Source of the DNA: Candidatus Woesearchaeota archaeon
GTDB lineage: Archaea; Nanobdellota; Nanobdellia; Woesearchaeales; JAGLGH01
Direction: 5' to 3'
Assembly: GCA_030670545.1 (NCBI GenBank)
Contig: DAOVBM010000002.1
Location: 4,258 to 68,257, forward strand
Length of the DNA stretch: 64,000 nt
In this document: positions 10,382 through 49,851 of the stretch, piece after piece
How the letters are laid out: the number at the start of each line of letters is the position of its first letter
Numbering within the stretch: the stretch's first letter is position 1
Made by a program: the position numbers and the translations under genes
The notes under the pieces: generated by a model
What the model was told of the DNA's origin: nothing
Databases searched by the model: none
The model's input: only the letters and a program-made list of their open reading frames with translations

Positions 10382-10384
10382 AGA

Positions 10385-10648: not shown

Positions 10649-10650
10649 AA

Positions 10651-11480: not shown

Positions 11481-11498
11481 TCATAAAAAGGAATCAAA

Positions 11499-11927: not shown

Positions 11928-11930
11928 AAA

Positions 11931-12623: not shown

Positions 12624-12640
12624 TGAATCAATGAGACAAA

Positions 12641-13150: not shown

Positions 13151-13152
13151 AA

Positions 13153-13383
13153 ATGACAGTAAGCTCCCATACAAAAGTATTCAAACAGCTGAAGGTTAAA
13201 CCCCTGAAACTGAAGAAGTTCATAAAACACAATGCTCCTAAAGAGAGATCATGCGGAAAAGCGCTCAATAAATGCAAAAGATGCGGAAGGTTAGGCGGCC
13301 ATATAAATAAGTACAAGCTTCACCTCTGCAGGCAATGCTTTAGGGAGATTGCAACAAGAATAGGATTTAAAAAATACTCTTAA
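13153..13383 (+). CDS. rps14: 30S ribosomal protein uS14 (type Z, zinc-binding)
   Basis: CxxC...CxxC with [20 protein letters not shown]. Confidence 0.85.
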
Positions 13384-13415
13384 AAGAAAAAAATAAAACA
13401 TTCATGAGGTAAAAA

Positions 13416-13808
13416 ATGTCTCTTAACGACCCAATTGCAAACACATTTTCAAAGATAATGAACAGCGAAAAACTTGGCAAAGGCGAATGCCTGATCAAGC
13501 CAGTTTCAAACATAATAAAGACTCTGCTCACGCTGATGAACGACAGGAATTATATAGGAAAATTCAAAGAGGTTGTTTATTCGCAGGGGAACTATATAAC
13601 AGTTAACCTGCTTGGCAGGATAAATAAATGCGGAGTAATAAAGCCAAGATATGCTATAAAAAAAGATGATTTCGAAAAATTTGAGAAAAGGTACCTGCCT
13701 GCAAGGGGATTCGGTATCCTTATAGTATCCACATCAAAAGGAATAATGACAAATGAAGACGCAAAAGAAAAAGGCATTGGAGGAAGGCTGATAGCATATT
13801 GTTATTAG
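13416..13808 (+). CDS. rps8: 30S ribosomal protein uS8
   Basis: MSLNDPIANTFSKIMNSE...GGRLIAYCY is a classic S8 start and end. Confidence 0.9.
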   Translation: MSLNDPIANTFSKIMNSEKLGKGECLIKPVSNIIKTLLTLMNDRNYIGKFKEVVYSQGNYITVNLLGRINKCGVIKPRYAIKKDDFEKFEKRYLPARGFGILIVSTSKGIMTNEDAKEKGIGGRLIAYCY

Positions 13809-13829
13809 TGTTATTATAATGTTATTAAA

Positions 13830-14378
13830 ATGAAAATCAAACAAATTGAGAGAATCATTGAAATCCCTGAAGGAATCAGCATAGAATTAGATAAAACCCT
13901 AGTAACTGTAAAAGGAGAAAAAGGGTCAGTCTTAAGAACATGGGACAATCCTAAAATAAATGCTGTAATGGAAGGTAATATGCTCAAGATTAGCGTAAAT
14001 AACGCAACAAACAGGGAGAAGAAAGACCTCCTTACGCTCAATGCGCATTTGAAGAACATGCTGAGAGGCGTAAAGGATGGCCATATCTATAAACTTAAGA
14101 TATGCTCTGGCCACTTCCCAATGAATGTCAGCATATCCAATAATGTAATCTCTGTCAAGAATTTCATTGGCGAAAAGATTCCAAGGACATATGCGATAAA
14201 AGAAGGGGCTGATGTCAAGATAGATGGCGACATAATAATAATCAAATCCTGCAGTAAGGAGATAGCAGGAGATACTGCTGCAAGCATAGAAAGGTTAACA
14301 AGAATAACAAATAAGGACAGAAGAATATTCCAGGATGGACTATATATCATAATGAAAGACGGCAAGGAGCTAAAATGA
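13830..14378 (+). CDS. rpl6: 50S ribosomal protein uL6
   Basis: IEIPEGISIELDKTLVTVKGEKG...SGHFPMNVSI. Confidence 0.85.
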   Translation: MKIKQIERIIEIPEGISIELDKTLVTVKGEKGSVLRTWDNPKINAVMEGNMLKISVNNATNREKKDLLTLNAHLKNMLRGVKDGHIYKLKICSGHFPMNVSISNNVISVKNFIGEKIPRTYAIKEGADVKIDGDIIIIKSCSKEIAGDTAASIERLTRITNKDRRIFQDGLYIIMKDGKELK

Positions 14379-14965
14379 AAGATTTAATTATCAAAAGGAA
14401 GGCAATGAAAGCTAAAAAGCCCACATTCCGCAGGCAGGATTCCCATAAGAAAGATAGGCTTGGCAGCGGATGGAGAAAACCAAAGGGGCTGCATTCCAAA
14501 GTAAGGCTTTGCAAGAAAGGCTATTGCAGAAGCGTAAGTACAGGATATGGCTCTCCAAAAAATGTTGCAGGCTTGAGTAGGGAAGGTCTTGTAAAAGTAA
14601 ATATCGCATCAGTTAATGATCTTAACATAATAGATAATAAGATACAGGGAGTGATCATAAACTCATCTGTGGGAAATAAAAAAAGGCTTGAGATAATAAA
14701 AACTGCAAAAGAAAAGAATATCATGATACTCAATCTAAAGGATCCTGAAAAATATGCAGCAAAGATAGAGGATGCTATGAAAAAGAAGAGACAAGATAAA
14801 GATAGCAAAAAGAAAGAAAAAGAAATGAAAGCCAAGGAAAAAGAAGAGAAGAAGAAAGAGAAGCTGGAGACAAAAATAGAGAAAGAAGAGACTGGCGAAG
14901 AGAAGAAGGATAGAGAAAAGAAAGAAAAAGATAAGATATTGACATCAAAGAGTGAATCACTATGA
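14375..14965 (+). CDS. rpl32e: 50S ribosomal protein eL32 with Lys/Glu-rich tail
   Basis: RRQDSHKKDRLGSGWRKPKGLHSKVR eL32 motif. ~70-aa tail KKRQDKDSKKKEKEMKAKEKEEKKKEK. Confidence 0.8.
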   Translation: MKDLIIKRKAMKAKKPTFRRQDSHKKDRLGSGWRKPKGLHSKVRLCKKGYCRSVSTGYGSPKNVAGLSREGLVKVNIASVNDLNIIDNKIQGVIINSSVGNKKRLEIIKTAKEKNIMILNLKDPEKYAAKIEDAMKKKRQDKDSKKKEKEMKAKEKEEKKKEKLETKIEKEETGEEKKDREKKEKDKILTSKSESL

Positions 14966-15432
14966 AACTTGACGTACAAAAAAGGATAATTTCAGATCTC
15001 TTGGAAGTATCTAAAAAGAGAATAGTTTTTGACGAGACAAGATTGGATGAGATAAAAGAGGCCATAACAAAATCAGACCTTAAGTCACTTGTTAAAGACA
15101 AGGCTATTTCAGTACTGCCAAAAAGAGGAATCTCCCGTGTAAGAGCAAGAAAAATCATGAAGCAGAAAAAAAAGGGCAGGATGAAAGGCCACGGCAGCAG
15201 GAAAGGAAAGAATACTGCGCGCCTTCCAGGAAAAAGGGTATGGATAAATAAAATCCGGGCACTGAAAACCATGCTCAAGGTGCTGAGAGATAAAAAGATT
15301 GTGGAGACTTCAACTTATCAAAATCTTTACAATAAGGCAAGAGGCGGCTTTTTCAGATCAAGGAGACACCTCAGGCTGTATATAAATGAGCAAGGGCTTA
15401 TAAAAAAGAAGATTATAAAAAAGAAAGAATGA
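14962..15432 (+). CDS. rpl19e: 50S ribosomal protein eL19
   Basis: MKLDVQKRIISDLL..., RARKIMKQKKKGRMKGHGSRKGK, position after L32e. Confidence 0.85.
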   Translation: MKLDVQKRIISDLLEVSKKRIVFDETRLDEIKEAITKSDLKSLVKDKAISVLPKRGISRVRARKIMKQKKKGRMKGHGSRKGKNTARLPGKRVWINKIRALKTMLKVLRDKKIVETSTYQNLYNKARGGFFRSRRHLRLYINEQGLIKKKIIKKKE

Positions 15433-15441
15433 TGATTAAAA

Positions 15442-16029
15442 ATGAAAAAAAATTTTAAAACCCGCGTAGTGCAATTCAGAAGGAAAAGAGAAGGGAAAAC
15501 AAACTATAAGAAGAGGCTAAAGCTGCTTAAATCAGGCATGCCCCGGTTGGTCATAAAAAAGTCGCTTAAGCATATCTCTGTGCAGATAATAGAATATTCG
15601 CAGCATGGAGACAAGGTTGTCGCAACAATCAATTCAAAAGTGCTTGAGAAGATGGGTTGGCCTGCAAAAGGAAATATCCCTAGCGCTTATCTTACAGGAT
15701 TGCTGGTGGGAAAAAAGGCTGTTGAGATGAAGATAAAGAAGATTATCCTTGACACAGGCATGCAGTCTGTTGTAAAGGGATCAAGGATATACGCTCTTGC
15801 CAAGGGAGCTATTGACGCAGGAATGGATATTCCTCATGCAAAAGATGTATTGCCTAATGATGATATAGTGAAATGCAAAGCAATAGAAAACTATGCAAAA
15901 ATCCTAAAAGAAAAAGATGCTGATGCTTACAAAAAGCAATTTTCACAATATTTAAAAAATAACATAGATCCTTTAATGCTGGGAAAGATGTTTGAAACAA
16001 TTAAAAATAAAATAACCGGTGCCAAATAA
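15442..16029 (+). CDS. rpl18: 50S ribosomal protein uL18
   Basis: RRKREGKTNYKKRLKLLKSG...RLVIKKSLKHISVQII. Confidence 0.85.
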   Translation: MKKNFKTRVVQFRRKREGKTNYKKRLKLLKSGMPRLVIKKSLKHISVQIIEYSQHGDKVVATINSKVLEKMGWPAKGNIPSAYLTGLLVGKKAVEMKIKKIILDTGMQSVVKGSRIYALAKGAIDAGMDIPHAKDVLPNDDIVKCKAIENYAKILKEKDADAYKKQFSQYLKNNIDPLMLGKMFETIKNKITGAK

Positions 16030-16897
16030 AATGCCTAAAAAAGAAGACAATAAAAAAGAAGATATTGAAGAAAAGAAGGAAGAAACAACTGTTGAAGGAG
16101 AGGAAAAAGTTGAAACTACAGCAAAAGATGCTGAGATCCCAGTTGAAAAGCCGTCTGAAGAAATAAAAGAAGCTGCTAAACCAGCACAAAATGCTACTCT
16201 TAGCGGGTGGAATCCTGCAACAGACATTGGAAAAAAAGTAAAATCAGGAGAGATAACTAGCTTTGCTGAAATAAAGGAAAAGGGCCTTAAGGTGATGGAA
16301 CCAGAGATTACAGAAGTCCTTCTTCCAGAACTTGAATCTGATCTGCTCCTTATAGGTCAGGCAAAAGGAAAATTCGGCGGTGGCCAGAGAAGAGTTTTCA
16401 AGCAGACACAGAAGAAGACAAAAGAAGGAAACAAACCAAGCTTCGCAACCTTTGCAGTTGTAGGCAACAGTAATGGCTATGTGGGAGTAGGTTATGGAAA
16501 AAGCAAAGAAACAGTTCCTGCAAGAGAAAAAGCCCTAAGGAATGCTAAGCTCAGTGTTATGAAGATCAGAAGAGGATGCGGCAGCTGGCAATGCGAATGC
16601 AAACAGCCACACTCTATACCTTTCGAGGTCTCTGGAAAATGCGGGTCAGTAATATTAAAGCTAATGCCAGCTCCAAAAGGAACTGGAATGTGCGTAGAGC
16701 CTGAATGCCAGAAAGTATTGAGATTAGCAGGAATCACAGACATCTGGTCAAAATCCCTTGGACAGACCAAGACAAAAACTAATCTTATCAAAGCGTGTGT
16801 TGATGCACTGCATAACCTCAACAGGATGAAGATATCCCCTAAAGATAAAGAAATGCTAGGGATTGTTGAAGGAAGCATAAAAAAGGAAGAAAACTAA
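16019..16897 (+). CDS. rps5: 30S ribosomal protein uS5 with ~70-aa acidic/Lys-rich N-terminal extension
   Basis: WNPATDIGKKVKSGEI...FAVVGNSNGYVGVGYGKSKETVPAREKA is the S5 core. Confidence 0.85.
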   Translation: MPNKMPKKEDNKKEDIEEKKEETTVEGEEKVETTAKDAEIPVEKPSEEIKEAAKPAQNATLSGWNPATDIGKKVKSGEITSFAEIKEKGLKVMEPEITEVLLPELESDLLLIGQAKGKFGGGQRRVFKQTQKKTKEGNKPSFATFAVVGNSNGYVGVGYGKSKETVPAREKALRNAKLSVMKIRRGCGSWQCECKQPHSIPFEVSGKCGSVILKLMPAPKGTGMCVEPECQKVLRLAGITDIWSKSLGQTKTKTNLIKACVDALHNLNRMKISPKDKEMLGIVEGSIKKEEN

Positions 16898-24888: not shown

Positions 24889-26136
24889 CTACTTAACCAA
24901 TTCATCAACTGTATATTTTTTTTCTTCACCAGAATCAAGATTTCTTACTTTTATCTTGCCTTCCTTGAGTTCATTCTCTCCTATAATGACTGCGTATTTC
25001 GCTCCGATTGAATCTGCATAGGACAGCTGCTTGCCAAGCTTCCTTCCCAACAGGTCCATATCAACACTATATTTTTGCCTCAGCTTTGCAGCGATCTTTG
25101 AAGCTTCTGCAACAACATCTGCGTTGACAGGAGCTATAAAATAGTCACACTTCTTACTTGGCTCTGGAAAGATACCTTTCTCTTTGAGAAGAAGGCTGAG
25201 TGTCGCAAATCCAATCCCGAATCCTGTAGCATGGGTTGCTTCGCCTCCAAATAACTGGACCATATTATCATATCTTCCTCCGCCTGCAATAGACCTTAAC
25301 TTGCTTTTCCTGCCAAATACTTCAAATACTGTTCCTGTATAATATGCCAGCCCCCTAACTGTAGAAAGGTCTATCTCAATAAATCTGGTATCAAGATTAT
25401 GAATTATCTGCGCAATCTCATTAAGCCCTTCTTTTGTGAGGTCATTCTTAGGCTCAATGCTTTCAAGATTCTCTATCAGAAGTATGTCAAATATAGTCTC
25501 TATCTGGTCATCGTCTATTCCAAGATCTCTTAGGTTAGCCTCTACTTCACCTCTTTGCAGTTTTGATACTTTATCAATCTCTGTGAATACTGCTTCAATC
25601 TTGTCCTTGTCTATAAAGTCCATTATAAGGCCCTGCAGCAGCTTTCGATTATTTATCCTGACCACAAAATCATTTTCTGTAAGCCCAAGATCTGTAAAAC
25701 ATTTTATAAGAAATGATATAATCTCAGAATCCGCCTGCGGCTTTGCTGAACCGAAAAGTTCTGCGCTGAATTGGTAGAATTCCCTGAGCCTTCCTTGCTG
25801 TGGCTGTTCATATCTCCACATCCTTGAGAGAGCAAACCATTTAACAGGCTTGGCAAGCATTTTCTGTTTTTCTATAAACATCCTCACAAGCGATGCAGTA
25901 AGCTCGAATCTTAGGCCAATCTCTTCCTTGCTCCTCTTCTCAAGCGTAAATATCTGCTTTTTTATCTCTTCTCCTGATTTGCATGTAAGCAGTTTCATTG
26001 ATTCAAGAGCAGGAGCTTCTACTTCTTTGAAATTGTATGATTCAGCAGTTTTCTTGAGCGAATCAAATATCTGGTTCCTTATACTCATATCTTCAGGGTA
26101 AAAATCAACTGTTCCTTTCACTTTTTTGAATGCCAT
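24889..26136 (-). CDS. hisS: Histidine--tRNA ligase
   Basis: Class II motifs, GGGRYDNMVQLFGG...ATGFGIGF signature of HisRS, C-terminal anticodon-binding domain. Confidence 0.9.
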   Translation of the reverse strand: MAFKKVKGTVDFYPEDMSIRNQIFDSLKKTAESYNFKEVEAPALESMKLLTCKSGEEIKKQIFTLEKRSKEEIGLRFELTASLVRMFIEKQKMLAKPVKWFALSRMWRYEQPQQGRLREFYQFSAELFGSAKPQADSEIISFLIKCFTDLGLTENDFVVRINNRKLLQGLIMDFIDKDKIEAVFTEIDKVSKLQRGEVEANLRDLGIDDDQIETIFDILLIENLESIEPKNDLTKEGLNEIAQIIHNLDTRFIEIDLSTVRGLAYYTGTVFEVFGRKSKLRSIAGGGRYDNMVQLFGGEATHATGFGIGFATLSLLLKEKGIFPEPSKKCDYFIAPVNADVVAEASKIAAKLRQKYSVDMDLLGRKLGKQLSYADSIGAKYAVIIGENELKEGKIKVRNLDSGEEKKYTVDELVK

Positions 26137-26224
26137 GCTCTTGGTTTATTGTTGTCCATTTAAATAATTTTCTAAAAACTTGGAATTAAAGAGTATAGGG
26201 GCAAAATTGGAAATGTTTGATAGT

Positions 26225-26526
26225 AAGTAAAAAGTCAGATGCAAAGGAGCACAAGCATCTTCAAATCTTGGGATAGGTTATTAGAAGGCTCTGCTCCCCC
26301 GCAACTGGTTACGCTCAGTTGACACGCAATGTGGAGCATGAAGCTCCACTACGCGGCAATTAGGTTTTATTGAAAGCCGCGATGTGTGACCTTGAGGTCA
26401 CACCACCTTTTATCAAATTTTGTTAAAATTTGAGGGACAACCCCCAGCGACGAGCAAGATAAGGAAAAGGATTAAGTTTTGACTGATGATGCTGGTGCTC
26501 CTTGAATAGCAGACTTTTTACTTACG
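26225..26526 (+). repeat. Family-1 long-hairpin MITE-like element, copy A (with ~130-bp nested insertion)
   Basis: Termini GTAAGTAAAAAGTC...GACTTTTTACTTAC are inverted. Inner arms GGAGCACAAGCATCTTCAAA...TGATGATGCTGGTGCTCC are inverted. The insertion sits between CCCCCG and GGGACAACCCC. Confidence 0.7.
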
Positions 26527-26567
26527 TTTGATAGAAAACCTTAAATATTGTTTCTCAATCCAGATTA

Positions 26568-28412
26568 ATGATGAAAAAAGTCTTTCTGATTTGGTGCCTT
26601 ATAGCAATATTATTAATAATCCCTGTATCGCTTGCAGAATATGGCAGCCTTAAGCTTCTTGCTGTCCAGGAGAAAGGAGGAAATCTCTCAGGCAGCCTTG
26701 CAGACTTGCATCTGGAGATAAATCCAGGAAACGGAAGGGTGTTTATGGATACTTTTCCCCTGACAAAACTTGACACCCAGGTATCGACAAGGTTTGCAAA
26801 AGAGATTGCATGCAATTATCTTGACATTAATTGCGATAAGTATGACTTTTTTTATACCATCAGATCAAATTCCCCTATAATTGCAGGTCCTAGCGCTGGC
26901 GCAGCCATAACAGTGCTTACTATAAGCCTTCTTGGAGATATTGATATCTCTGAAGATGTTGCAATAACCGGCACAATCAACTCTGGAGGGATAATAGGCC
27001 CTGTAGGAGCTCTGCAACAGAAGATAGAGGCAGCAAGCAGGGATGGAATAAGGAAAGTGCTTATTCCTGTAGGAGAAAGATACTCTGCAAAGGATATCAC
27101 AGGCCTTAACAATCTCTCAGCAATTATAGAAACAGGCGCAGATGAGAACATCACTGCAAAAGATATAATACAAGGCAGGAAAGGCATTGACCTTATTGAA
27201 TTAGGGGAAGAGCTTGGCATAGTAGTCAGGGAAGTGTCAGATATTGAAAATGTTCTTTTTGAGTTCACAGGAGTATCTTATGGAAAAGATATAGGGAATA
27301 TATCAATTGACCCTCATTACAGTCTGGTCATGAGCCAGCTTGCGATAGAGTTATGCAGGAGAAGCGGTGAGTTCATGGACAAGATAACATCAGATAGAAC
27401 AGTTTCCCACAGCTTTGAAGAGAGTTATGAGAATATATATCAGACTGCATTAAATTTTACAGGAAAAGGGGATAAAGCATTTGAGCAGGAAAGGTTCTAT
27501 TCATCTGCAAGCTATTGTTTTGGCGCAAATGTAAAATTAGGCCATATTACATTATGGATACAGAATGAATCTGATACGCAGCTTACAGAAAGGATAAATG
27601 CGATTGAGACAGAGATTGAGGCATTTAAGAAAAAAGAGTATAAGACAATAACAGACCTGCAGGCATATATGGTAGTAGAAGAAAGGATAACAGATGCAAA
27701 AGATTTTCTTGAAGCAAGCAAAAAGGAACTAGCTATGGGAAACAGAGATCAGGCATTGTATAGTATTGCTTATGCTATAGAAAGAAAATTCAGCGCTTAT
27801 GCATGGAGCACTTTCATAACCGGAAAAGGAAAAGCATTCAGGCTGAGTAATGAGGATATGCGCAAGTCATGCCAAAAAAAGCTAAGTGAAGCTGAAGAAA
27901 GATACCAGTATGTCGCATTATTCCTGCCAAGCTATCTCTCTAAGATTAGGAAAGGCATTGATGCAGCATATTTGGATTTCAGTAATAATAATTCTGAGGC
28001 ATGTCTCTTCAAGGCATCAAAAGCAAAAGCTGAGATCAATGTAATATTGAATGTATTTGGTGTTGAAAAAGAAAATTTTGATAACCTTATTGAAAGAAAA
28101 CTTGATATTGTGGAAAAGACTATCATTAAACAGACCAGGAAGGGAATCTTTCCAATAGTCGGGTTTAGTTATTATGAATACGCTAGTGATCTGAAAGATA
28201 TTGATCAGTTTTCTTCATTGCTTTATATCGAATATGCGCTTGAGATGAGCAATCTTGACATATATTTTCCTGAAAAGTATGAGATAACATTCACTGATCA
28301 GGATAAGAGTGAGATAGGAATCTTTCTTATAGGACTGGGAGCAGGACTTCTGATTGCTGTCATAATCATGATAAGAGCAAAGAGGAAGCCGATATCAAAA
28401 AAGAAAAAATAG
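26568..28412 (+). CDS. Exported Lon-like serine peptidase (S16 family proteolytic domain) with C-terminal TM anchor
   Basis: Signal peptide. The GPSAGAAITV...K (QQKIEAASRDGIRKVLIP) Ser-Lys dyad region resembles the Lon protease domain. C-terminal TM plus KKKK tail. Confidence 0.55.
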   Translation: MMKKVFLIWCLIAILLIIPVSLAEYGSLKLLAVQEKGGNLSGSLADLHLEINPGNGRVFMDTFPLTKLDTQVSTRFAKEIACNYLDINCDKYDFFYTIRSNSPIIAGPSAGAAITVLTISLLGDIDISEDVAITGTINSGGIIGPVGALQQKIEAASRDGIRKVLIPVGERYSAKDITGLNNLSAIIETGADENITAKDIIQGRKGIDLIELGEELGIVVREVSDIENVLFEFTGVSYGKDIGNISIDPHYSLVMSQLAIELCRRSGEFMDKITSDRTVSHSFEESYENIYQTALNFTGKGDKAFEQERFYSSASYCFGANVKLGHITLWIQNESDTQLTERINAIETEIEAFKKKEYKTITDLQAYMVVEERITDAKDFLEASKKELAMGNRDQALYSIAYAIERKFSAYAWSTFITGKGKAFRLSNEDMRKSCQKKLSEAEERYQYVALFLPSYLSKIRKGIDAAYLDFSNNNSEACLFKASKAKAEINVILNVFGVEKENFDNLIERKLDIVEKTIIKQTRKGIFPIVGFSYYEYASDLKDIDQFSSLLYIEYALEMSNLDIYFPEKYEITFTDQDKSEIGIFLIGLGAGLLIAVIIMIRAKRKPISKKKK

Positions 28413-28585
28413 TAAGTCAAAAGTCAAGTGTAACGGAGCACAAGCATCTTCAAAACTTAGGATGGGTTATTAGAAGGCTCTGCTCCCCCGTAAGGGACAA
28501 CCCCCAGCGACGAGCAGAATAATGAAAAGGATTAAGTTTTGACTGATGATGCTGGTGCTCTTTGAATAGCAGACTTTTTACTTAC
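28411..28585 (+). repeat. Family-1 hairpin element, copy B (overlaps the TAG stop of the protease gene)
   Basis: ~90% identical to the other copies. Begins at the stop codon TAGTAAGTC. Confidence 0.75.
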
Positions 28586-28942
28586 AAAAAATAGAATGAT
28601 TTTTGAATAGATAATAAACCCAAGGAAACAATTCAGCAAGCTGAACCGTCCCCTTGGGAAAAAGAGGTGATTATGTTTTCTTTTTGAGTTTATGAATTAA
28701 AAACTCCTGCAAACAGCAAAACTCCTGTGATTTGCATGAGGAAAAGAGAGTATAGATTATGAATTGCCTCTTTTTTTGAAAATTAGACAATTAACCTCTT
28801 TTTTGTTATTACTTGAGAATGGTATACTTATATTTAAATCTTTCTATTTTGATAGTATTTTTGAGTAGTTACAGTTGGGGCGGCGGAAATATTCCGGATT
28901 TGAGTACATAACAAATATAAATCTCCTGCTCTTCTACAGGTC

Positions 28943-29980
28943 ATGCACAAAGATAATATAACTAATTCAGTAAGCAAGAAAAGAGCTATGCTGATATTTG
29001 TGTTAATCCTGGTAATATCACTTTGTTTTATCGAATATGCAAATTCCCACCCTGCTAACATTGCAGATAATCCATTACCTGAACAATGCCCCAATCCAGC
29101 AATATACTTTTGTCCAAGAGACAACTGCAGCCAGAATCTCGCATTAACTATAACCTCAGCAAACAATTCAGTGCACTGCGCATTCTTTGACATTGATTCA
29201 TCAGATGTTATTAATGCTCTGGCAAGGAAATCAATATATGCTGATGTAAAACTGGTTATTGATAATAATAATCAAGACAACAGGATAAAAGGTAATGTTA
29301 AGTACGACACTTCCAGACAATTGACACATAACAAATTCTGTGTAATTGACAGCATGATTGTATGGACAGGCTCATTCAATCCAACAGAAAGAGGCAGCAA
29401 CAAGAACAATAATAATGCAGTCCTTATTTATTCAAAACAGCTTGCAGCAAACTATGAAAAAGAGTTTGAAGAGTTGTGGATGGGTAGATTTGGGTCAGGC
29501 GAAAAAACAGAAATAACAAAAGTAAGAATAAACAATATAACGATATACAGCTATTTCTGCCCTGAAGACAGCTGTGCAGAAAAAGTTATTGAAGAGATAA
29601 GAGGCGCAAGAAAAAGCGTATATTTTATGACTTTTTCTTTTACGCATGAAGCTATTGCTGATTCTCTTCTTTTTCTTAATAAAAATATTGACATAAAAGG
29701 AATTTTTGAAAAGTCACAGGGGGGCAGCAAGTACTCACAATTTAAAAGGCTGGATGAATTTGGAATAGATGTAAAAAAAGATTCAAACCCATACAATATG
29801 CATCACAAGGTGTTTATCATTGACAACAATACTGTGATAACTGGCAGCTTTAATCCCACAAAGAATGGAGATGAGAGGAATGACGAGAATCTTCTGATAA
29901 TTAAAGATAAAGATATTGCAGAACAATATGTTGATGAGTTCTTTTATATCTGGAGTTTGACAGAATCAAATAGAAGTTAA
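28943..29980 (+). CDS. Secreted phospholipase D-like / HKD-motif (Nuc-type) nuclease or phosphodiesterase
   Basis: Two HxK(x4)D motifs: HNKFCVIDSMIVWTGSFNPT and HHKVFIIDNNTVITGSFNPT. Signal anchor. Confidence 0.7.
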   Translation: MHKDNITNSVSKKRAMLIFVLILVISLCFIEYANSHPANIADNPLPEQCPNPAIYFCPRDNCSQNLALTITSANNSVHCAFFDIDSSDVINALARKSIYADVKLVIDNNNQDNRIKGNVKYDTSRQLTHNKFCVIDSMIVWTGSFNPTERGSNKNNNNAVLIYSKQLAANYEKEFEELWMGRFGSGEKTEITKVRINNITIYSYFCPEDSCAEKVIEEIRGARKSVYFMTFSFTHEAIADSLLFLNKNIDIKGIFEKSQGGSKYSQFKRLDEFGIDVKKDSNPYNMHHKVFIIDNNTVITGSFNPTKNGDERNDENLLIIKDKDIAEQYVDEFFYIWSLTESNRS

Positions 29981-30033
29981 TATTTCTTTGGTCTTATCTC
30001 TTGTGTCTTTTTGCAATCTTCTATAGTTTGTAT

Positions 30034-30200
30034 GTAATAAGTCTTATATCATAGAGCAGTAGCATCTTCAAAACTTAAGATGTGATTTTGGAAGGCTCTG
30101 CTCCCCCGTAAGGGACAACCCCCTGCGACGAGCAGGATGTAAAAATAGAAGGAGTTTTGACCTGATGATGCTACTGCTCTAAGAATCGGAGACTTATTAC
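30034..30200 (+). repeat. Family-1 hairpin element, copy C (variant termini GTAATAAGTCT...AGACTTATTAC)
   Basis: Same core CTCTGCTCCCCCGTAAGGGACAACCCCC; terminal inverted repeats. Confidence 0.7.
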
Positions 30201-30203
30201 AAA

Positions 30204-30590
30204 CTATCGCTTATCTTCTTTCTCTTCTTCACTGGCTTCACGCCTGAGATAATATTCAATAAGCACTGCTTTTACTACAAGGAAAAACGAGAGGAATATG
30301 GCTGCTATCCTGAACGCATTCCTGGGATCTGCGCTTTTTCCAAATATGGACCCTATAAGGAATATAAAAAGCAAAAGGAGCATGAGATGTGTCTGCGCAT
30401 CTTTTGCGAAAACAGAAAAATTTTTTCTTACAATTGACTCAAAAAGATGGCTGTAGAAATAAAACAATATGAACGCTATTGCTACAATAGCCATGACACC
30501 GACCATGTCGCTGAGATAATACCTAAAGAGAAATGAGATAAGTATTATAAGCCCTGCAATGCTAAGCATATTGCTTGATACCTTGAACAT
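30204..30590 (-). CDS. Small integral membrane protein, unknown function
   Basis: Four hydrophobic segments; acidic C-terminal tail. Confidence 0.4.
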   Translation of the reverse strand: MFKVSSNMLSIAGLIILISFLFRYYLSDMVGVMAIVAIAFILFYFYSHLFESIVRKNFSVFAKDAQTHLMLLLLFIFLIGSIFGKSADPRNAFRIAAIFLSFFLVVKAVLIEYYLRREASEEEKEDKR

Positions 30591-30652
30591 GTTCCACCTC
30601 TTTTTATACCTTCTGGATTAGGTTATTAATAAATTTTGCCTTTTATTGATAG

Positions 30653-31114
30653 CTAAATATCTTCTTTTATCGGGATTGTAACTATTGTTGTCAATGTCTT
30701 TAGTATATCTTTGTTCTTCCTAAGATTTATTATATAATCATTGAATTCATTTATGCCTGAAAATTTCAGCTTGAGCAGAAGGTCATATTCTCCTGTTACC
30801 CCAAATGCCTCTTTGACATGATTATTTTTGAAAAGAGATGACTGTAGATCAGTAGCAGTATTCACAAACATGAAAACTATGAAATCTTCTCCGACAGCAG
30901 CATTATCCAGCTTGATAGTGAATTTCTTTATGGTTCCCTTATTCCTCAGTTCCTTCATTCTCTTGTGCACTGTAGAAGGTCTGATGCCAGTTGATTTAGC
31001 TATATCTCTTATTGGCATGCGGGAGTTTTCTTTGAGAATTTCTATTATCTTTTTGTCTTTTGCGTCTATTTTTGCGCAGGTATTTCCAGCAACTGCAGAT
31101 AGCTTTTTTGTCAT
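30653..31114 (-). CDS. Lrp/AsnC family transcriptional regulator
   Basis: HTH DKKIIEILKENSRMPIRDIAKSTGIRPSTVHKRMKEL followed by a RAM domain. Confidence 0.8.
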   Translation of the reverse strand: MTKKLSAVAGNTCAKIDAKDKKIIEILKENSRMPIRDIAKSTGIRPSTVHKRMKELRNKGTIKKFTIKLDNAAVGEDFIVFMFVNTATDLQSSLFKNNHVKEAFGVTGEYDLLLKLKFSGINEFNDYIINLRKNKDILKTLTTIVTIPIKEDI

Positions 31115-31236
31115 CTGCAGTTATAATTTCTCATATATTTATAAATATTTCTAATTTTGTGCAATTAAATCATAAAAAATGGGACAAATGGTATTATAAC
31201 ATTCTTAATCTATATAAATCATCTAACAATCCGTAT

Positions 31237-31627
31237 GTAATAAGTCTTATATAAAAGAGCAATAGCATCTTCAAATCTTGATGAGCGTAGCTCATTAAGA
31301 ACTTAGAGAGCTTTGCTCTCCAAGTACTTAAGATATGATTTTGGAAGGCTCTGCTCCCCCGCAACTGGTTACGCTCAGTTAATGCTGAGTAATCAGAGAT
31401 TACTGGCAACTTCGGCGGAGCTGAAGTCACGCAAGGTGGAGCATGAAGCTCCACTACGCGGCAATTAAGTCTTATTGAAAGCCGCGAAGTGTGACCTTGT
31501 GGTCACACCACCTTTTATCAAATTTTGCTAAAATTTGAGGGACAATCCCCTGCGACGAGCAGGATGTAAAAATAGAAGGAGTTTTGACCTGATGATGCTA
31601 CTGCTCTAAGAATCGGAGACTTATTAC
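31237..31627 (+). repeat. Family-1 hairpin element, copy D (two nested insertions, ~390 bp)
   Basis: Same termini as copy C. Carries the same inserted module as copy A plus an extra ~55-bp segment. The hairpins GTGGAGCatgaaGCTCCAC and GTGTGACCttgtGGTCACAC lie inside it. Confidence 0.7.
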
Positions 31628-31669
31628 ATACAACAATCCATTTTAAAATCAAACTAAACAGGTGGTATC

Positions 31670-32932
31670 ATGGACAAAGGAGACAATTATGAAGTAAAGG
31701 ACATAAGCCTTGCAGAGCAGGGAAAGATGAATCTTGAGATAGCAGAAAGCCATATGGGAGCTTTGCTTAAGATCAAAGAGAGATTTGAAAAAGAAAAGCC
31801 TTTTGAAGGTGTAAAGATTGGCTTGGCTCTTCACATCACAAAAGAGACTGGAATTCTTGTAAGGACATTGATTGCAGGAGGCGCGGAAGTCGCAATTACA
31901 GGCTGCAATCCGCTGTCAACACAGGATGATATTGCAGCAGCTCTTGCTGAAGAAGGTGTCAATGTATGGGGATACAAGGGAGAAAACAATGAGGATTATT
32001 ACAGGTACATCAATAATGTGATTGCATGCAGGCCGCATATCACAATAGATGACGGCTGTGACCTGGCCAGTGAGATTCATAAGAATCATAAAGACCTTAT
32101 CCCTGGGCTGATTGGAGGATGCGAAGAGACAACAACAGGCATCATCAGATTAAAAGCAATGGAAAAGGACAATGCGCTGAAATATCCGATAATAGCAGTC
32201 AATGACAACAAGACCAAGCATCTTGTCGACAATTATTTTGGAACAGGACAGAGCACTGTAGACGGCATAATCAGAGCATCCAATGTTCTGTTTGCAGGCA
32301 AGAATATTGTCGTTGCAGGATATGGTGACTGCGGCAAAGGATTTGCAATGAGGTGTAAGGGATTAGGGGGAAATGTCATTGTGACAGAAGTAGATAATTT
32401 CTGTGCATTGCAGGCAGCATATGACGGCTTCAGGGTTATGAAAATGGACGATGCAGCTCTTATTGGAGACATATTCTGCACATTGACAGGCAACAAGCAT
32501 GTCCTTAGGGTTGAGCATGTCAAAAAGATGAAAGATGGAACAATACTTGCAAATTCAGGCCATTTTGATATAGAGATTGATGTGAAAGGCATGAAAGATG
32601 CAGCATCATCTGTAAGAAGGGTAAGGCCTTTTCTTGATGAATATGCAATTGATGGGAAAAAGATATTTCTCTGTGGAGAGGGCAGACTGGTGAACTTATC
32701 AGCAGCAGAAGGACACCCCAGTGAAGTAATGTCAACATCATTCTGCGGTCAGGCAATGGCATGCGAATTCCTTGTAAGAAATAAAGGAAAATTAGAAAAC
32801 AAAGTGATCCAGCTTCCTAATGAGATTGATGACGAAATCGCAGCTTTACAGCTGAAAGCGATGGGAATTGGCATTGATGAACTGACAGCAGAGCAGGTTG
32901 AATATCTTAACAATTGGGAAGAAGGGACTTAA
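31670..32932 (+). CDS. ahcY: S-adenosyl-L-homocysteine hydrolase
   Basis: Highly conserved AdoHcyase sequence, NAD-binding GYGDCGKG. Confidence 0.9.
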   Translation: MDKGDNYEVKDISLAEQGKMNLEIAESHMGALLKIKERFEKEKPFEGVKIGLALHITKETGILVRTLIAGGAEVAITGCNPLSTQDDIAAALAEEGVNVWGYKGENNEDYYRYINNVIACRPHITIDDGCDLASEIHKNHKDLIPGLIGGCEETTTGIIRLKAMEKDNALKYPIIAVNDNKTKHLVDNYFGTGQSTVDGIIRASNVLFAGKNIVVAGYGDCGKGFAMRCKGLGGNVIVTEVDNFCALQAAYDGFRVMKMDDAALIGDIFCTLTGNKHVLRVEHVKKMKDGTILANSGHFDIEIDVKGMKDAASSVRRVRPFLDEYAIDGKKIFLCGEGRLVNLSAAEGHPSEVMSTSFCGQAMACEFLVRNKGKLENKVIQLPNEIDDEIAALQLKAMGIGIDELTAEQVEYLNNWEEGT

Positions 32933-33007
32933 AGTTTTGATTTTAACTTTTTATTATTTTTTTTGTATTCAGTTTAGAAAATAATATAATATCTATTAGA
33001 TACTATC

Positions 33008-33172
33008 ATTATCGAAAATTTCGCAAGAAATTTTATTGGGGTTTAATACCCCTCACTTCAGTGCGAAATTTTGGATTCCAAAAATTTGATAATCTATAAT
33101 GCAAATCCGTAATACCCCCATTTATGGTGGGGATAGGATTTGCTATCAATAAATTGTCAAATTTTTGTTATA
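33008..33172 (+). repeat. Family-2 structured repeat, copy 1
   Basis: ~90% identical to 49521-49688. Contains the palindrome CGAAAATTTCG and the hairpins GGGGTTTAATACCCC and CCCCATTTATGGTGGGG. Confidence 0.65.
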
Positions 33173-33185
33173 ATTAAATTTAGAA

Positions 33186-33851
33186 TTATACTACAGATTC
33201 AAAAGTTAATTCAATTTCTTTAGATTCTTTCTTAAGTATTTCAATAGCATCTTTTAATTTATCTTTAATAACCTTGCAGTCTTTGTTAGTTCTCTTTTTT
33301 AAAGCTTCTATGTTTTCACGATTAAAGGATTTTATTCCAATTTCAAGAAAATCATTCAGTTTGTCATTAAAATTTTCTACAGTCTTGAGTACTCTCTTCA
33401 TATTTTCAATTAAACCATGAATTACATATACTTCCTCTGCCTCTTCCTCTTTAAACTTTTTCTTAATATTATCTGGAGTTGCAGTTTTAATATCTACTAT
33501 AATTTTAGCAAATTCCTTTTTATTAGCTTTGGAAATATTATCTATGAAAGCAATCAAGTAATTAATCTCTGAAGCCATCTTAACTTTTGATAGCTCTTTT
33601 GATTTATTAATTAAATCTTTATTATAACCTAGCGGCTCAAGATCCAATAAATGATAAAAAGTTTCAAATCTTCCATACATTTCTTTTAATACTTCTTCTG
33701 ACTCAAAAAGCAAATCTCCAACTTTATCTATTCTACGCTTTGATATATTTTTTAATCTCTTAACAAATTTCTTTTTCTTTGATTCACTCAACCAGGCATC
33801 CAATGCCTCATGATCTCCGCTTAGACCTTTAATTAATTTTATTAGATTCAT
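33186..33851 (-). CDS. Hypothetical alpha-helical protein
   Basis: 221-aa ORF, no recognisable motifs. Confidence 0.4.
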   Translation of the reverse strand: MNLIKLIKGLSGDHEALDAWLSESKKKKFVKRLKNISKRRIDKVGDLLFESEEVLKEMYGRFETFYHLLDLEPLGYNKDLINKSKELSKVKMASEINYLIAFIDNISKANKKEFAKIIVDIKTATPDNIKKKFKEEEAEEVYVIHGLIENMKRVLKTVENFNDKLNDFLEIGIKSFNRENIEALKKRTNKDCKVIKDKLKDAIEILKKESKEIELTFESVV

Positions 33852-33899
33852 CTTTAAAATATAAATAATAGGAGATATATATAAAATGTTCTATAAGGG

Positions 33900-34072
33900 G
33901 TAAGTAAAAAGTAAGATGTCCTGAAGCACAAGCATCTTCAAAATTTAGGATAGGTTATTAGAAGGCTCTGCGTCCCCATAAGGGACAACCCCCCGCGACG
34001 AGCAGGATAAGGAAAAGGATTAAGTTTTGACTGATGATGCTGGTGCTCCTTTAATAGCAGACTTTTTACTTT
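33900..34072 (+). repeat. Family-1 hairpin element, copy E
   Basis: GTAAGTAAAAAGTAAGATG...CAGACTTTTTACTTTC termini; same core. Confidence 0.7.
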
Positions 34073-34105
34073 CTATAATGGCCAATAGTCCTGTGCTATC
34101 ATGTT

Positions 34106-37100
34106 TCATATCTTCAGGCTAACAACATTGCTGATGCCATGCTCATCCATACTTACTCCATATAGATTGTCTGCTTCAGATATTATGCCGTCATTGTGAG
34201 AGATAATCACATACTGCGACCTGTCTGAATATTTCCTTATGAGTTTTGCAAGCTTTTCAGAATTCTTTTTGTCAAGAGCAGCATCAACTTCATCAAGGAC
34301 ATAGAATGTAGCAGGGTCATGCTCTTGTATCGCGAAGATGAATGCAAGCGCAGTCATTGTCTTCTCACCCCCGCTTAATCCTCTTATATCCATGAACTTG
34401 TTTCCAGACAGCCTTACTTTGATATTAAGCCCGCCCTCGAAAGGACTCTCTGGCGTTTCGAGATCAAGGGATGCCTCGCCTTTTGTGGATAGATTCATGA
34501 ATATCTCTTTGAAATTGGCATTTACTACATCATAAGTATTCATGAAGAGCTCGCGTTTCTTGCCTTCTATCTCTTTCATCATCTCAAGGACATCATCTTT
34601 CTCCACCTTAAGAGTGTCTTTCTTCTGCAGCAGCTTGCTGTACTCTTCTTCAACGCTTTCATATATCTCAAGTGATTTGAGGTTTACTGAACCTATGTTC
34701 TCAACCATCCTTTCGAACTTGCTGATCTCTGACTTGAGCTGCTCTTCAGGCTTATCTGTAAACAGTTTTATGCTGTGATACTGCTCAAAATCTTTCTCAA
34801 GACCTGAAAGCTCTGCCTTGATGCCTGCAAGCTGAAGCGATATTACATTTGATTTCTGCTCTGTCTCCCTGCTTTTTGACAACAGGTCGTCAACTTCAAT
34901 CTCATTATGGGATATCTCTTCCTGAATTTTTGAACGTTTGCTGAACAGTGATTTGAACTGTGAATAAAACTCTGATACTTTCTCTTCTTTTACTTTGAGT
35001 TCCCTGCTGTCTTTTGATATTTTCTCATCAAGCTCTTTTGTCTCAATCCTGAAATCCTCCTCTTCTTTAACCAGCTGCCTGATTATCTTTGAGCTGCTTT
35101 CCAGCTCAGGCGTGAATATATTATCTGCCTGCATTTTCATGTTCTCTGATTCAGATCTGAGTTTGATAAGCTGCTCATTAAGCTCTGCTTTTTTCTGCTC
35201 AAATGTGTTAAGTTCCGCAAGCTTCAGTGGATTTCTCAATTCGTTTGATTTTGAACGGAGTTCCTGTTTCTTTATCTTGCAGTTTGCCAGTCCCCTGTTA
35301 TGCGCAGAGAGAGTATTCTGGATATGGTTTATCTTTGCTTCGATTTGCTCAAGCTGTTTTGAAAGTTCATCCTTTTTCTGGCTGGACAGATCCATGTCGC
35401 CTGAATCAAGATGCAGGCTTTTCTCTGTCTTTATTATGTCTCCTTCGAGATTTGCTTTCTCCTCACGCAGCTTTGTTATTTTTGCTTCATTCTCTTCTCT
35501 CCTTTTTTCAAGCGCAGAAATTGTATTCTGGAGCTCTGCAATCATCTCCTCAGTCTTATCAATATCCTTTGTAAGCTCTTTCTCCTTGAAACCATACCCT
35601 GACCTTGAAGCTTTCCTGTAGCCTCCATGCATCACACCGCTGATTTCAGCCATGTCACCGTCAAGAGTTACCATCTTAGCTTTTCCTATACCCAGCCTTC
35701 TTGCAACATCAATATTGTCAACCACAAGCGTGTTTGCGAATATATACTTGAACACTTTATTTAGCCTTGGCTCAAACTCCACAAGGTCAATTGCAAGCCC
35801 TTCAACTCCATTTGATTTCAGCATATCTTTTATCTTTGGATCAGTATCCCTTGCTTTCAGCTTGTTTATAGGCAGGAATGTGGCTGTGCCTAACCTGTTT
35901 GATTTCAGGTATTTTATGCAGTCTGATGCTGCCTTATCATTGTCTACTACAATGCTTCTCATCCTTGGTCCTGCAGCAGTTTCAAGAGCCAGTGCATATT
36001 TTGAGCTAACATTTCCTAAATCAGAAACAGTGCCAAGAACTCCTTTGAATCTTTCCTTGTTCTCTACAATCTTTTTGACAGCAATATCCCTGGATATCTT
36101 CTCTTTTATTCCTGCTGTCCTCACTTTCAGTTTTGCAAGATTCTCGTTTGCTATAAGGAGTGTCTTCCTCGATTGCCCTAATCTTGCAGAATGTGTAGAA
36201 TCCTCATCAAGGCATTTATTGAGGTCAAGAGTTGCTGACTTGAACCTGCTTTTCATCTGCTTTAGATTATCTATTTGTACTTTATTCTCTTTTTCGACCT
36301 CAAGGACTTTGCTGATCTTCTCATCTATTGTCTGTATCTGATAAGATATCTTGTCCTGCTCCCTTATAAGGTCCTGCTGATTTTCCCTCAATACCTGTAT
36401 ATCTTTTTGCTTGTCTTCAGCAAACTTGTCAAGCTTATCAATCTCATCTTCTATATCTCCTGCATCATCCATGTTATGTTTCTTTTTGAACCTGCTAATC
36501 TTTTCTTCAATTATTGATTTCTCCTTATTTAATGATAATATGGATCTCTCATTTTCTGTAATTGTTAACTTTAGGTCTTTTATGCTGTTTTCTGTCTTCT
36601 CTATGTTTATTTTCAGGTCTTCTTTCCTGTTTTTTATCTTCTTCAACTCAGATTCAAGTGATTCTATCCTGCTCTTGTTCTTTGCAATATCTATTTTTAG
36701 GTTCTCTACCTCTTTGTTAATCCTGACCTGCTCAGTCTCTCCTTTTGTCTCTACTTCCTTTGATATCTTTTCAATCTCTTCCTTTAGTTCACTGTTTTTT
36801 TGCTTTATAGCAGTTATCTTCTTGTTTTTAGATTCAGTCTTTGAATTAAGATTATCAACCTGTGACTGGAGTTTGCTTTTCTGTCCACTCTTCTGGTCAA
36901 TCTGTATCTTAAGATATGATGCCTTGTTCTGCTTTATCTTGTCAGCCATCTCCTTGTATCTAAGCGCCTGGTCACGCTCTTTCTTAAGCTCCCTGAGATA
37001 TGCCTTTCTCTCAGTAAGTATGATGTCTGCTTCATTCAGCTTTCCATCGACTTTATCAAGCTCGCGCAGTGCGCTTTGCTTCTTTTCTTCATACAAAGAT

Positions 37101-42895: not shown

Positions 42896-43060
42896 GTATG
42901 TAAACAGTCTGCTATTCAAGGAGCACCAGCATCATCCGGTCAAAACTCATTCTATTTTTACCTCCTGCTCGTCGCGAGGGGTCGCTCCATCCGGGAACGC
43001 AGAGCCTTCTAATAACCCATCCCAAGTTTTGAAGATGCTTGTGCTCTATGACCTCTGACT
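42896..43060 (-). repeat. Family-1 hairpin element, copy F (reverse orientation, variant core)
   Basis: Reverse complement carries GGAGCACAAGCATCTTCAAAACTTGGGATGGGTTATTAGAAGGCTCTGCGTTCCCGGATGG... Confidence 0.65.
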
Positions 43061-43115
43061 TTTTACATACAACAAATCAAAACTATTATAAATAATTCTA
43101 TAAATATATCAATGA

Positions 43116-48096: not shown

Positions 48097-48139
48097 AAGA
48101 AAGTGTTGAATGTTTATATAAGTTGCTGTTTATGGTATG

Positions 48140-48235
48140 TAATAATCATATGTAAAAGAGCAGTAGCATCTTCAAAACTTAAGATAGGTTATTCGAGGGC
48201 TCTGCGTTCCCGGATGGGACAACCCATGTCATTAA
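48140..48235 (+). repeat. Family-1 hairpin element, truncated copy G (5' half only)
   Basis: Matches the family from GTAATAATCA...GGGACAACCC, then diverges. Confidence 0.55.
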
Positions 48236-48375
48236 GTTAAGGTATTTTATTCAAGATTTTCTTAGGATTCAAATCCATCCTAATCTAATTCTTTGCCTGC
48301 TTCCACCATTGTTCCAGCGACGGCCATTAGCATTCGCAAAGGAAAAGAAAAGAATTAGGAAAGATTTGGAGAGGC

Positions 48376-48528
48376 TACACGAAAAAAAGCAGAAAGTATT
48401 GTCCTTTAGGACGAGGATGGATGCTATTGCATTTTTGCTTTATGCTTTTTTTGTGTCCTAGAAATCCGTCTCGAAAATTCGGCGCAAGCCAAGTCCTTTA
48501 GGGCTTGGTAAGTCGGATTTTAGGATTT
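48376..48528 (+). repeat. Family-3 repeat, copy 1 (direct repeat flanking the 48551-49420 gene)
   Basis: ~80% identical to 49694-49851. Internal hairpins GTCCtttaGGAC and CCAAGTCCtttaGGGCTTGG. Confidence 0.6.
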
Positions 48529-48550
48529 CCATGACATCTTAAAGACTCAT

Positions 48551-49420
48551 CTATTGCTGATTTACATATTCAAAATAGCCGTACTTAAGCTTATTCTGCA
48601 TCTTTTCAAAATCTTTATCAGACATCAGGCCGCCTTCTCCTGAAAATCCTCCCTGATGTTCTTTAAAATCTTTTGCCAGGATTACCATATCACCTGCCAT
48701 TTGTGTCAGGCCTGTTATATACTTAACCTGCCTTGGATCTTTTGCGCCAGGATAGGCAAGAATTTCCTTAAATGTATCCACAATTATTTTATATCTGGAT
48801 AAGTGTGTATTTGCCATGCTGTTTATGATTTTTGTGTCGCTGGGCCCAAATTTCCCGCCTTTACCTGTTAATTTGTATCCTGTTTCTGCAAGAACCTCAA
48901 TCCCTTCTTTGAGATGGCCTGCTGTTTTTGTGAGCTTTAAGAGAGAGTGAATTTGATAATCATCTTTTGCTATTACATCTATCCCTGGATAAGAAGGAAA
49001 ATTCTTTGTTATTTCTTCAACTATACATTTGTACCTTGTTTCGTTAATATTCTCCATATTTTTTATCAAATCGCATAAATTATGGAATTCATTCCCAGTA
49101 ATATCTCTAAATTTCCCTTTTTTTCTATATCCTGTCCCTAATATATTTATTGCCCCTGTTATATAATCCTTCTCAGTGTTGAGATAATCCAGCCATAATT
49201 TGTGTTCTGGTTTGTTTAAAGATACAGATAATTCCAGATTGTCTTCAAGATTTTTTATAATCTTGTTTATTCTGGATTCTTTGTAATTATGTTCCAGCTG
49301 GGTTATTGTGGGTTTAGGCTGCCTCTCCATCAATATGTTATTTCCTGCAGCAGAGTCCTCACTATATAGAAGAATGGTTCCAACTACGCAAATCATTGCG
49401 ATTCCTTGTTTTATTTTCAT
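48551..49420 (-). CDS. Secreted hypothetical protein (signal peptide) bracketed by family-3 direct repeats
   Basis: N-terminal hydrophobic segment. No recognisable domain. Confidence 0.45.
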   Translation of the reverse strand: MKIKQGIAMICVVGTILLYSEDSAAGNNILMERQPKPTITQLEHNYKESRINKIIKNLEDNLELSVSLNKPEHKLWLDYLNTEKDYITGAINILGTGYRKKGKFRDITGNEFHNLCDLIKNMENINETRYKCIVEEITKNFPSYPGIDVIAKDDYQIHSLLKLTKTAGHLKEGIEVLAETGYKLTGKGGKFGPSDTKIINSMANTHLSRYKIIVDTFKEILAYPGAKDPRQVKYITGLTQMAGDMVILAKDFKEHQGGFSGEGGLMSDKDFEKMQNKLKYGYFEYVNQQ

Positions 49421-49520: not shown

Positions 49521-49688
49521 ATGTTATCGAAAATTTCGCAAGAAATTTTATTGGGGTTTAATACCCCCACTTCAGTGCGAAATTTTGGATTCCAAAAATT
49601 TGATAATCTATAATGCAAATCCGTAATACCCCACATTTATGGTGGGGATAGGATTTGTTATCAATAAATTGTCAAATTTTTGTTATTG
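49521..49688 (+). repeat. Family-2 structured repeat, copy 2
   Basis: See copy 1. Confidence 0.65.
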
Positions 49689-49693
49689 TGATT

Positions 49694-49851
49694 ACACGAA
49701 AAAAAGCAGAAAGCCTTGTCCTTTAGTACGAAGATGTATGCTATTGCCTTTTTGCTTTCTTCTTTTTTTGTCCTAGAAATCCTTCTCGAAAATCCAGCGC
49801 AAGCCAGGTTATTTAGGGCCTGGTAAGTAGGATTTTAGGATATATATTACT
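49694..49851 (+). repeat. Family-3 repeat, copy 2
   Basis: See copy 1. Confidence 0.6.

Follow-up and report, generated by a model that had tools for sequence, protein, structure and literature searches.

A hairpin-built module in the P4 loop of a MITE-like archaeal repeat element and its probable transfer between diverged copies

Results

Genes and repeats at the locus

The window (the whole stretch of 64,000 nucleotides that was analysed) is a piece of archaeal core chromosome, on which a ribosomal-protein cluster, SecY, HisRS, a Lon-like protease, PLD, AhcY, SMC, RNase HII and HerA are encoded. In these 64 kb seven copies of a non-coding element of about 175-180 bp were found, here called family 1, five of which (A to E, all on the plus strand) lie within 8 kb at 26.2-34.1 kb. 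Copies A (26223..26525, from inverted end to inverted end) and D (31233..31631) represent a long form, copies B (28412..28585), C (30030..30204) and E (33900..34073) a short one. A further short copy, G, is situated on the minus strand at 42896..43070 and was missing from the copies listed in the original prediction, from which this study started. Finally, F (48135..48225, plus strand) consists of the 5' half only; it is cut inside the C-run of the core and continues directly into the terminal repeat of an IS4-family IS (48226-48242).

All six complete copies display 14-bp inverted ends on both sides (GTAAGTAAAAAGTC / GTATGTAATAAGTC), which start with GTAAGT or GTATGT, and this 14-mer has essentially no occurrence away from element ends. 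Outside the ends 8-bp target duplications follow, at a distance from the core that is constant across copies. They are perfect in A (GTTTGATA at 26215-26222 and 26526-26533), D (AACAATCC at 31225-31232 and 31632-31639), B (AAAAAATA on both sides), G (GATTTGTT) and, in another genome, L015 (GAGCATTA), so that both long copies are flanked by perfect duplications; seven of the eight positions agree in E (TATAAGGG / TATAATGG), L029 and L023, and six of eight in C, where the duplication has decayed. No family-1 element was present in 39 kb of syntenic HisRS-Lon-PLD-AhcY-SMC sequence of the relatives L039, L041 and L042, which at 60-74% protein identity show presence and absence of the host element and contain no orthologous pair of a long and a short form. 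Genes for a transposase, an HUH protein or a TnpB-like protein were absent from the window, and in the loci compared no second pair of family-1 ends was seen 1-3 kb apart, as would mark an autonomous partner. On the basis of inverted ends, fixed 8-bp duplication, small size, copy number and presence/absence, family 1 can be addressed as a MITE-like non-autonomous transposon, the ends and duplications of which imply a DDE-type transposase acting in trans. In the literature searched no description of such an element was met.

Some other repeats occur in the same stretch. An unrelated one of ~165 nt, equipped with short hairpins (GGGGTTTAATACCCC, AAATTTTGGATTCCAAAAATTT), is found at 33010-33175 and 49524-49689 in ~98% identical copies. 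Direct repeats of ~160 nt (48376-48535 and 49693-49850, 85-90% identical) flank a minus-strand ORF of 289 aa (48551-49420, no Pfam match) together with one copy of the 165-nt repeat, an arrangement beside the broken copy F that may constitute a further mobile or rearranged unit. In and around the ribosomal-protein cluster (6665-16108) there are long coding repeats of low complexity, rich in Lys and Glu, with a periodicity of 12 (GAAGAAAAAGAA…). Furthermore, the public contigs L035, L031 and L038 end inside family-1 elements, the last of which derives from the same sample as the window and starts within the 3' arm of D; hence these repeats break assemblies.

Conserved fold of the element interior

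Genomes, one for each species, were searched with a pattern of 20 bases taken from the 5' half of the element. Matches lay in Nanoarchaeota, Woesearchaeota and further MAGs and SAGs of DPANN-like type, a single genome frequently holding several; others were chance matches inside bacterial genes. Window-type outer arms are missing from many copies in other lineages. From 17 short copies a consensus hairpin with a rod-like fold was derived, in the order P1, asymmetric loop, P2, variable arm, P3 and P4. P1 is composed of AGCAUC/GAUGCU and a variable extension, P2 of UCAAAAC/GUUUUGA, P3 of GCUC/GAGC followed by UGCN/NGCG with an AC bulge, and P4 of CCCC-loop-GGGG, after which stands the invariant unpaired CAACCCCC.

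This fold was examined for covariation in 22 copies from nine genomes (that of the window and eight MAGs/SAGs). In the alignment 95.3% of the cells pair, compared with 38-45% when partners were slid, and compensatory changes are seen in 16 of 33 pairs; none of 500 shuffles reached the observed values. The 21 G·U cells against five A·C cells, one invariant U·G being left out, point to selection on RNA of a given strand, not on a DNA palindrome.

A TATA-like box (TTTAAATA / TTTATATA) precedes the first core base by 21-26 nt in all five copies of SAG AM-311-K23 and L036, a position that was read with archaeal promoter geometry in mind. By this suggestive trait the core resembles an independent RNA gene more than a MITE in the genomes concerned. 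At the loci concerned (L009, L011, L021, L032 and L036) T-runs often occur after the 3' end.

Known RNA classes gave no fit. The window contained no Rfam match at the gathering threshold, no element within 26100-34200 had one at E ≤ 10, and a tRNA/tmRNA scan yielded none. A self-cleaving ribozyme (hammerhead with CUGAUGA, twister or HDV-like) was rejected: CUGAUGA is present in the copies of the window, but the homologues read CUUAUGA, CUUAGGA or UGAGGA and do not keep the essential bases, and for the HDV-like reading the variable site is moreover misplaced with regard to an HDV-like P4. Similarly, a K-turn or C/D-box at the asymmetric loop beside P1 was discarded, as the non-bulged strand is without the required G·A pairs, and a small-peptide ORF in the core showed no conservation.

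In the subfamily of window copy G, L033 and L029, a C-G pair of P4 is changed to U-A together with a C to U change in the otherwise invariant 3' C-run (alignment columns 53/63/73). The purine strand could pair with either pyrimidine run, forming P4 or the GGG-ACAA-CCC hairpin preferred by MFE, which may be a structural switch. A pyrimidine-motif triple helix of the 3' C-run with P4 (C/G/C to U/A/U) was put aside on account of the unfitting strand polarity and of the fact that the change is a single independent event.

The module in copies A and D

The segment proposed to be shared by A and D is real, as reading and alignment confirmed. Its limits were set against the short copies, the tip of which reads …GCTCTGCTCCCCCG-TAA-GGGACAACCCCC… (…CCCCCG-TAA-GGGAC…). 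In A it takes up 26302..26433 on the plus strand, 132 nt with five hairpins (H0 26302-26321, H1 26331-26349, H2 26352-26381, H3 26384-26403, H4 26413-26433), and according to alignment, fold and hairpin positions it stands where host hairpin P4 would otherwise have its terminal loop. In D it extends over 31362..31538 on the same strand, 177 nt with seven hairpins, and corresponds to the module of A at 94.7% identity (125/132 aligned positions) plus a two-hairpin extension at 31381-31425. Both starts agree with those given previously, whereas the previous ends (26445 in A, 31540 or 31545 in D) had included up to 12 nt of host core (GGGACAACCCCC), and instead of three stem-loops folding gave the five and seven stated above. 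The extension private to D had likewise been recognized, at a size of 56 nt; it measures 45 nt, the final ~10 bases (CACGCAAGG) being common to A.

The hairpins are clear in both copies. The module of A reaches an MFE of -48.6 kcal/mol (z = -5.8) with none of 200 shuffles folding equally well, that of D a z of -6.0, and the reverse strand folds as well as the forward one (z = -6.6), owing to stems that are almost purely Watson-Crick. The hairpin sequences had no further match within the window, where none is expected by chance, and the copies known are two full ones and a truncated one in L035. The original proposal of a discrete block made of hairpins and nested in the core of family 1 is supported.

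Copy D carries a second insertion of its own (31276..31325, plus strand), which by alignment and fold is located in the 5' strand of host helix P2 and comprises 50 nt with two hairpins. It is lacking in A and did not recur in the window or in ~229 kb of related DPANN DNA. The insertion opens with TCTTG, as does copy A at that position, and C-type ACTTAA resumes afterwards, a junction pattern that template switching from one copy to another could have left behind. With its two further private hairpin blocks D resembles L021, which has extra hairpins in the P1 strand, and these blocks suggest a general tendency of family-1 elements to accrete hairpins.

The P4 loop as a variable site

The loop of P4 has 5 nt (CGTAA, CGTAG, CGGAT…) in 19 of the 22 aligned copies. 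Besides the 132 nt (A) and 177 nt (D) of the window, different hairpin inserts of 57-65 nt are placed exactly in this loop in L021, L032 and L007. From this variation the loop is regarded as the permissive site of family 1, and as the 5-nt tip is the general state, the short form is regarded as ancestral. When consensus P3/P4 were forced, the cost amounted to 8.3 kcal/mol in A and 11.9 in D, compared with 3.8 in B and 9.3 in C, and in the constrained folds every module hairpin survived, branching off the P4 loop. The module occupies the terminal loop of a covariation-supported helix, and this loop varies in length among homologues, as is characteristic of expansion segments. An archaeal bulge-helix-bulge intron was dismissed by inspection: the motif of two 3-nt bulges on either side of a 4-bp helix does not exist at the junctions, and UUGA before GGG cannot pair with the bases 3 nt past the C-run.

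The apex was also found interrupted by an IS. In copy F, ATGTCATTAAGTTAAGG stands directly 3' of the cut in the C-run, and of the IS nothing but this end is left in the window (48135-48242). In L008 (1-1850, minus strand, a JAYEPB01 MAG) a complete IS4-family IS, with a DDE_Tnp_1 transposase of 432 aa and the ends CAATGTCATTAAGTTAAGG, interrupts a family-1 copy of another subfamily at this very base. The same base of the C-run having been hit in two backbones and two genomes, the apex is considered an insertion target.

Module and carriers compared

Outside the module the arms of A and D are identical in only 77.8% of positions (137/176), compared with 94.7% (125/132) within it (Fisher p = 3.6e-5). 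Each long copy has a close short sibling, since the arms of D are 95.4% identical to those of C and the arms of A 93% to those of B, with A in general resembling B and E; accordingly, the same module is carried by two subfamilies. A third module-bearing backbone is given by the truncated copy L035 from another genome (JAGLGH01), which shows the same left junction CCCCG|CAACTGGT in the backbone of that genome's own short copies. B and C, members of different subfamilies, have an identical tip (CCCCCGTAAGGGAC), which independent deletions would not be expected to recreate.

A comparable, independent case was met in SAG AM-311-K23, where L021 and L032 possess a common two-hairpin insert of 54 nt (53/54 identical) but diverge in their variable arms and even in the bases that adjoin it. 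The two copies are located at 5100-5340 of L021 and 6200-6420 of L032, both on the minus strand. The motif order CGCAACTGG…CACGCAA…TGTGG of this insert is met again within the 5' part of the module in the window, though in circular permutation; to judge from these motifs the likeness could reflect distant common ancestry of the cassettes or chance.

A gain of the module with subsequent transfer between backbones is much better supported than ancestral long forms shortened by deletion, the scenario that had been named as refuting the original prediction and that the 5-nt loop in 19 of 22 copies makes unlikely. The low divergence of the module could partly stem from stronger constraint rather than recent transfer. 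Bases diagnostic of the subfamilies are reached within ~18 nt on the left side of the module and within ~11 nt on the right, and in L035 possibly within ~5 nt of it. With a tract so tightly bounded, ordinary recombination would have few homologous bases at its disposal; a site-specific process, or template switching driven by microhomology, would be in keeping with such limits.

Possible movement of the module by itself

The original prediction had suggested that the module is a second, smaller mobile or structured RNA element. Movement relative to its carriers is borne out by the difference in identity and by the junction in L035, the same module being present in A-type, D-type and L035 backbones. 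The indications of autonomy are missing. The module lacks terminal inverted repeats of its own, its 5' end CAACTGGTTACG… and 3' end …TTAAAATTTGA not being complementary, and comparison of the flanks …CCCCCG and GGGACAAC… detected no target duplication and no short repeat of any kind across the junctions. The P4 loop is wholly replaced, GTAA having become GCAA…TTGA identically in A and D, and since the loop is not split, this fits loop exchange between copies better than fresh insertion. Neither a free-standing module nor a free-standing single hairpin was detected in the window itself, in the related DPANN DNA of ~229 kb, in viral contigs or in phage and plasmid records, and a stem-fixed pattern of the module gave 12 matches in metagenome contigs, all of which were chance matches in GC-rich bacterial coding sequence. 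The absence of inverted ends and duplication and the constant left flank CCCCG would be compatible with an IS200/IS605-type palindromic element (PATE), but the hairpins of the module abut the very ends and are not subterminal. Taken together, the sequence evidence argues against a mobile element of its own, though not conclusively.

Selection on the module

Of the seven substitutions between the modules of A and D six affect unpaired positions, although these make up 38% of the module (P = 0.012), and the seventh changes G·U to A-U. From this distribution we infer that the stems are being kept by selection. Since every stem is Watson-Crick and the two strands fold to the same degree, the selected structure may be RNA or single-stranded or cruciform DNA alike.

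Discussion

Origin of the module

We consider it somewhat probable that the module is a transferable loop-expansion cassette, which was spread between copies by recombination or template switching across the invariant core. Family 1 is regarded as a non-autonomous transposon with the P4 loop as the sole place in its rod-like fold that tolerates extra sequence; as the five (A) or seven (D) stem-loops radiate from the tip and leave P1-P4 untouched, the long copies stay intact. The short form would be ancestral and the direction of change one of gain and not of loss. Presumably the cassette arose once in the lineage of the window and was then passed to further subfamilies of family 1 when nearby copies recombined or switched templates, for which the invariant core on both sides of the loop (GAAGGCTCTGC.CCCCG and GGGACAA.CCCC) would have supplied the homology. 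In our view the cassette was not spread by a transposition of its own, and the stems of the module are retained by selection.

Alternatively, the module could be a tiny non-autonomous palindromic element that inserts site-specifically in the P4 loop, a parasite of a parasite after the model of the Rickettsia palindromic elements or the IS200/IS605-derived PATEs, which we regard as possible but rather unlikely. IS200/IS605 elements move by HUH-type single-strand transposition without inverted ends or duplication, and the absence of both from the module is compatible with this. A site-specifically inserting element would also be expected to have boundaries as precise as those observed, with the left junction CCCCG|CAACTGG identical in three backbones and two genomes; the module is far less diverged than its carriers, an analogous common cassette is present in another genome (L021/L032), and the IS4-family IS at the same C-run base in two backbones and genomes demonstrates that the apex serves as an insertion target. 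However, none of the sequences searched contained the module free-standing or in a different setting; the window offers no transposase, HUH or TnpB-like gene; the loop was replaced in the same manner in A and D, not split; and the two further unique hairpin blocks of D speak for gradual accretion of hairpins, not for one defined element.

That the long elements are ancestral and B, C, E and G arose by repeated precise deletion of the module appears improbable. MITEs commonly shrink by internal deletion, and A looks like D minus 45 nt, so that deletions within the module do seem to occur; yet the 5-nt loop of 19 of 22 copies is distributed over nine genomes, distant lineages included, the tips of B and C are identical, the module has diverged by 5% compared with 22% in the arms of A and D, and the present data already point to long forms nested within short-form clades. 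Compatible with any of these origins is a function of the module, which might be an add-on kept by selection, either as a transcription stop (H3 followed by CACCUUUUAUCAAAUUUUG) or as a protein-binding platform altering the expression of the host RNA or of a neighbouring gene. Its stems are conserved while loops change, H3 with the T-tract CACCTTTTATCAAATTTTG was flagged as terminator-like in both copies by a bacterial-type consensus, and a gene of the same strand follows 34-42 nt downstream of both long copies, the Lon-like gene in the case of A and AhcY in that of D. But the six terminator-like sites recorded with this bacterial consensus are no excess over the 4.5 ± 2.4 of shuffled sequence, only two copies are available, and short copies occupy equivalent positions, for which reasons a function of this kind seems very doubtful to us on the sequences at hand.

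Comparison with known systems

Prokaryotic MITEs share with family 1 the small size, the lack of coding capacity, multiple copies, inverted ends, a duplication of fixed length and syntenic presence/absence, and about 105 conserved MITEs per Mb were reported for a woesearchaeal genome (PMC11602168). In an ordinary MITE the ends are conserved, whereas in family 1 it is the interior fold that is maintained over distant lineages, even in copies without these ends. With its GTAA/GTAT-type ends and 8-bp duplication family 1 recalls IS66/ISBst12 elements; an IS66-family element of the ISBst12 group shows the ends GTGACT…/GTAACT… and an 8-bp direct repeat (PMC12898284). The GTAA ends and the duplication would fit an assignment to this group, which stays a lead only, because no transposase with these ends was found in the window or in the loci compared.

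ERIC sequences are imperfect palindromes of ~127 bp, classed as MITEs, which are co-transcribed and act at the RNA level (PMC3184786). ERIC or IRU elements, which belong to enterobacteria, differ from family 1 in being bacterial, of unrelated sequence and flanked by TA-type sites. Longer ERIC variants with insertions of ~70 bp at specific internal sites are said to have been described by Hulton in 1991 and by Wilson and Sharp in 2006; the family-1 insert, unlike these, consists of perfect hairpins stacked at the tip loop and is common to diverged subfamilies. The Rickettsia palindromic elements, reportedly treated by Ogata et al. in 2000, are small non-coding blocks in tolerated positions of genes and elements, RNA genes included, and occur in many unrelated contexts, in contrast to the module, which was seen in one loop of one element family only.

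IS elements that target palindromes are represented by IS1397 and ISKpn1, the targets of which are REP/BIME palindromes, going by a reference listed in PMC3184786. The IS4-family IS of copy F and L008 resembles them in aiming at the loop or centre of a repeated palindromic element. While IS1397 and ISKpn1 are full IS with a transposase, the module has no gene, inverted ends or duplication. Expansion segments of structured RNAs come close to the module in aspects of architecture, with extra helices on a terminal loop that vary from homologue to homologue and do not disturb the pairing of the core. Diverged paralogues with nearly identical inserts in one position are also reported for the introns that spread among tRNA genes of Thermoproteales (Fujishima et al. 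in 2010); these differ in that inspection of the module junctions revealed no bulge-helix-bulge and that family 1 is known here as DNA sequence.

Significance

DPANN genomes are tiny, and yet seven copies of family 1 are kept in 64 kb of core chromosome. As a MITE the family is unusual, since it has a conserved interior with RNA-type covariation, is found in several genomes and is absent from Rfam. Its tip loop is a permissive and exchangeable site, with near-identical cassettes in diverged copies of two independent genomes.

On the sequences alone, one could join these aspects and assume that the heart of family 1 is a structured RNA of DPANN archaea new to science, which in the lineage of the window came to lie between transposon ends, and that the module and the L021/L032 cassette represent a new, minimal kind of hairpin-only mobile cassette homing specifically to the terminal loop of this RNA. 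We hold this combined reading to be unlikely; if true, some genomes would have the RNA as stand-alone genes, while in the lineage of the window it would have been spread by transposition, and a parasite nested in a parasite would move without inverted ends or target duplication.

The host is the more surprising object, being a transposon-borne fold supported by covariation across DPANN genomes. If its core is not an expressed RNA, family 1 offers a well-documented case of MITE variants that nest and recombine, in a group of archaea that has received little study; if it is, the family would be a natural case of a structured RNA which DNA transposition disperses and to which loop cassettes are added as modules.
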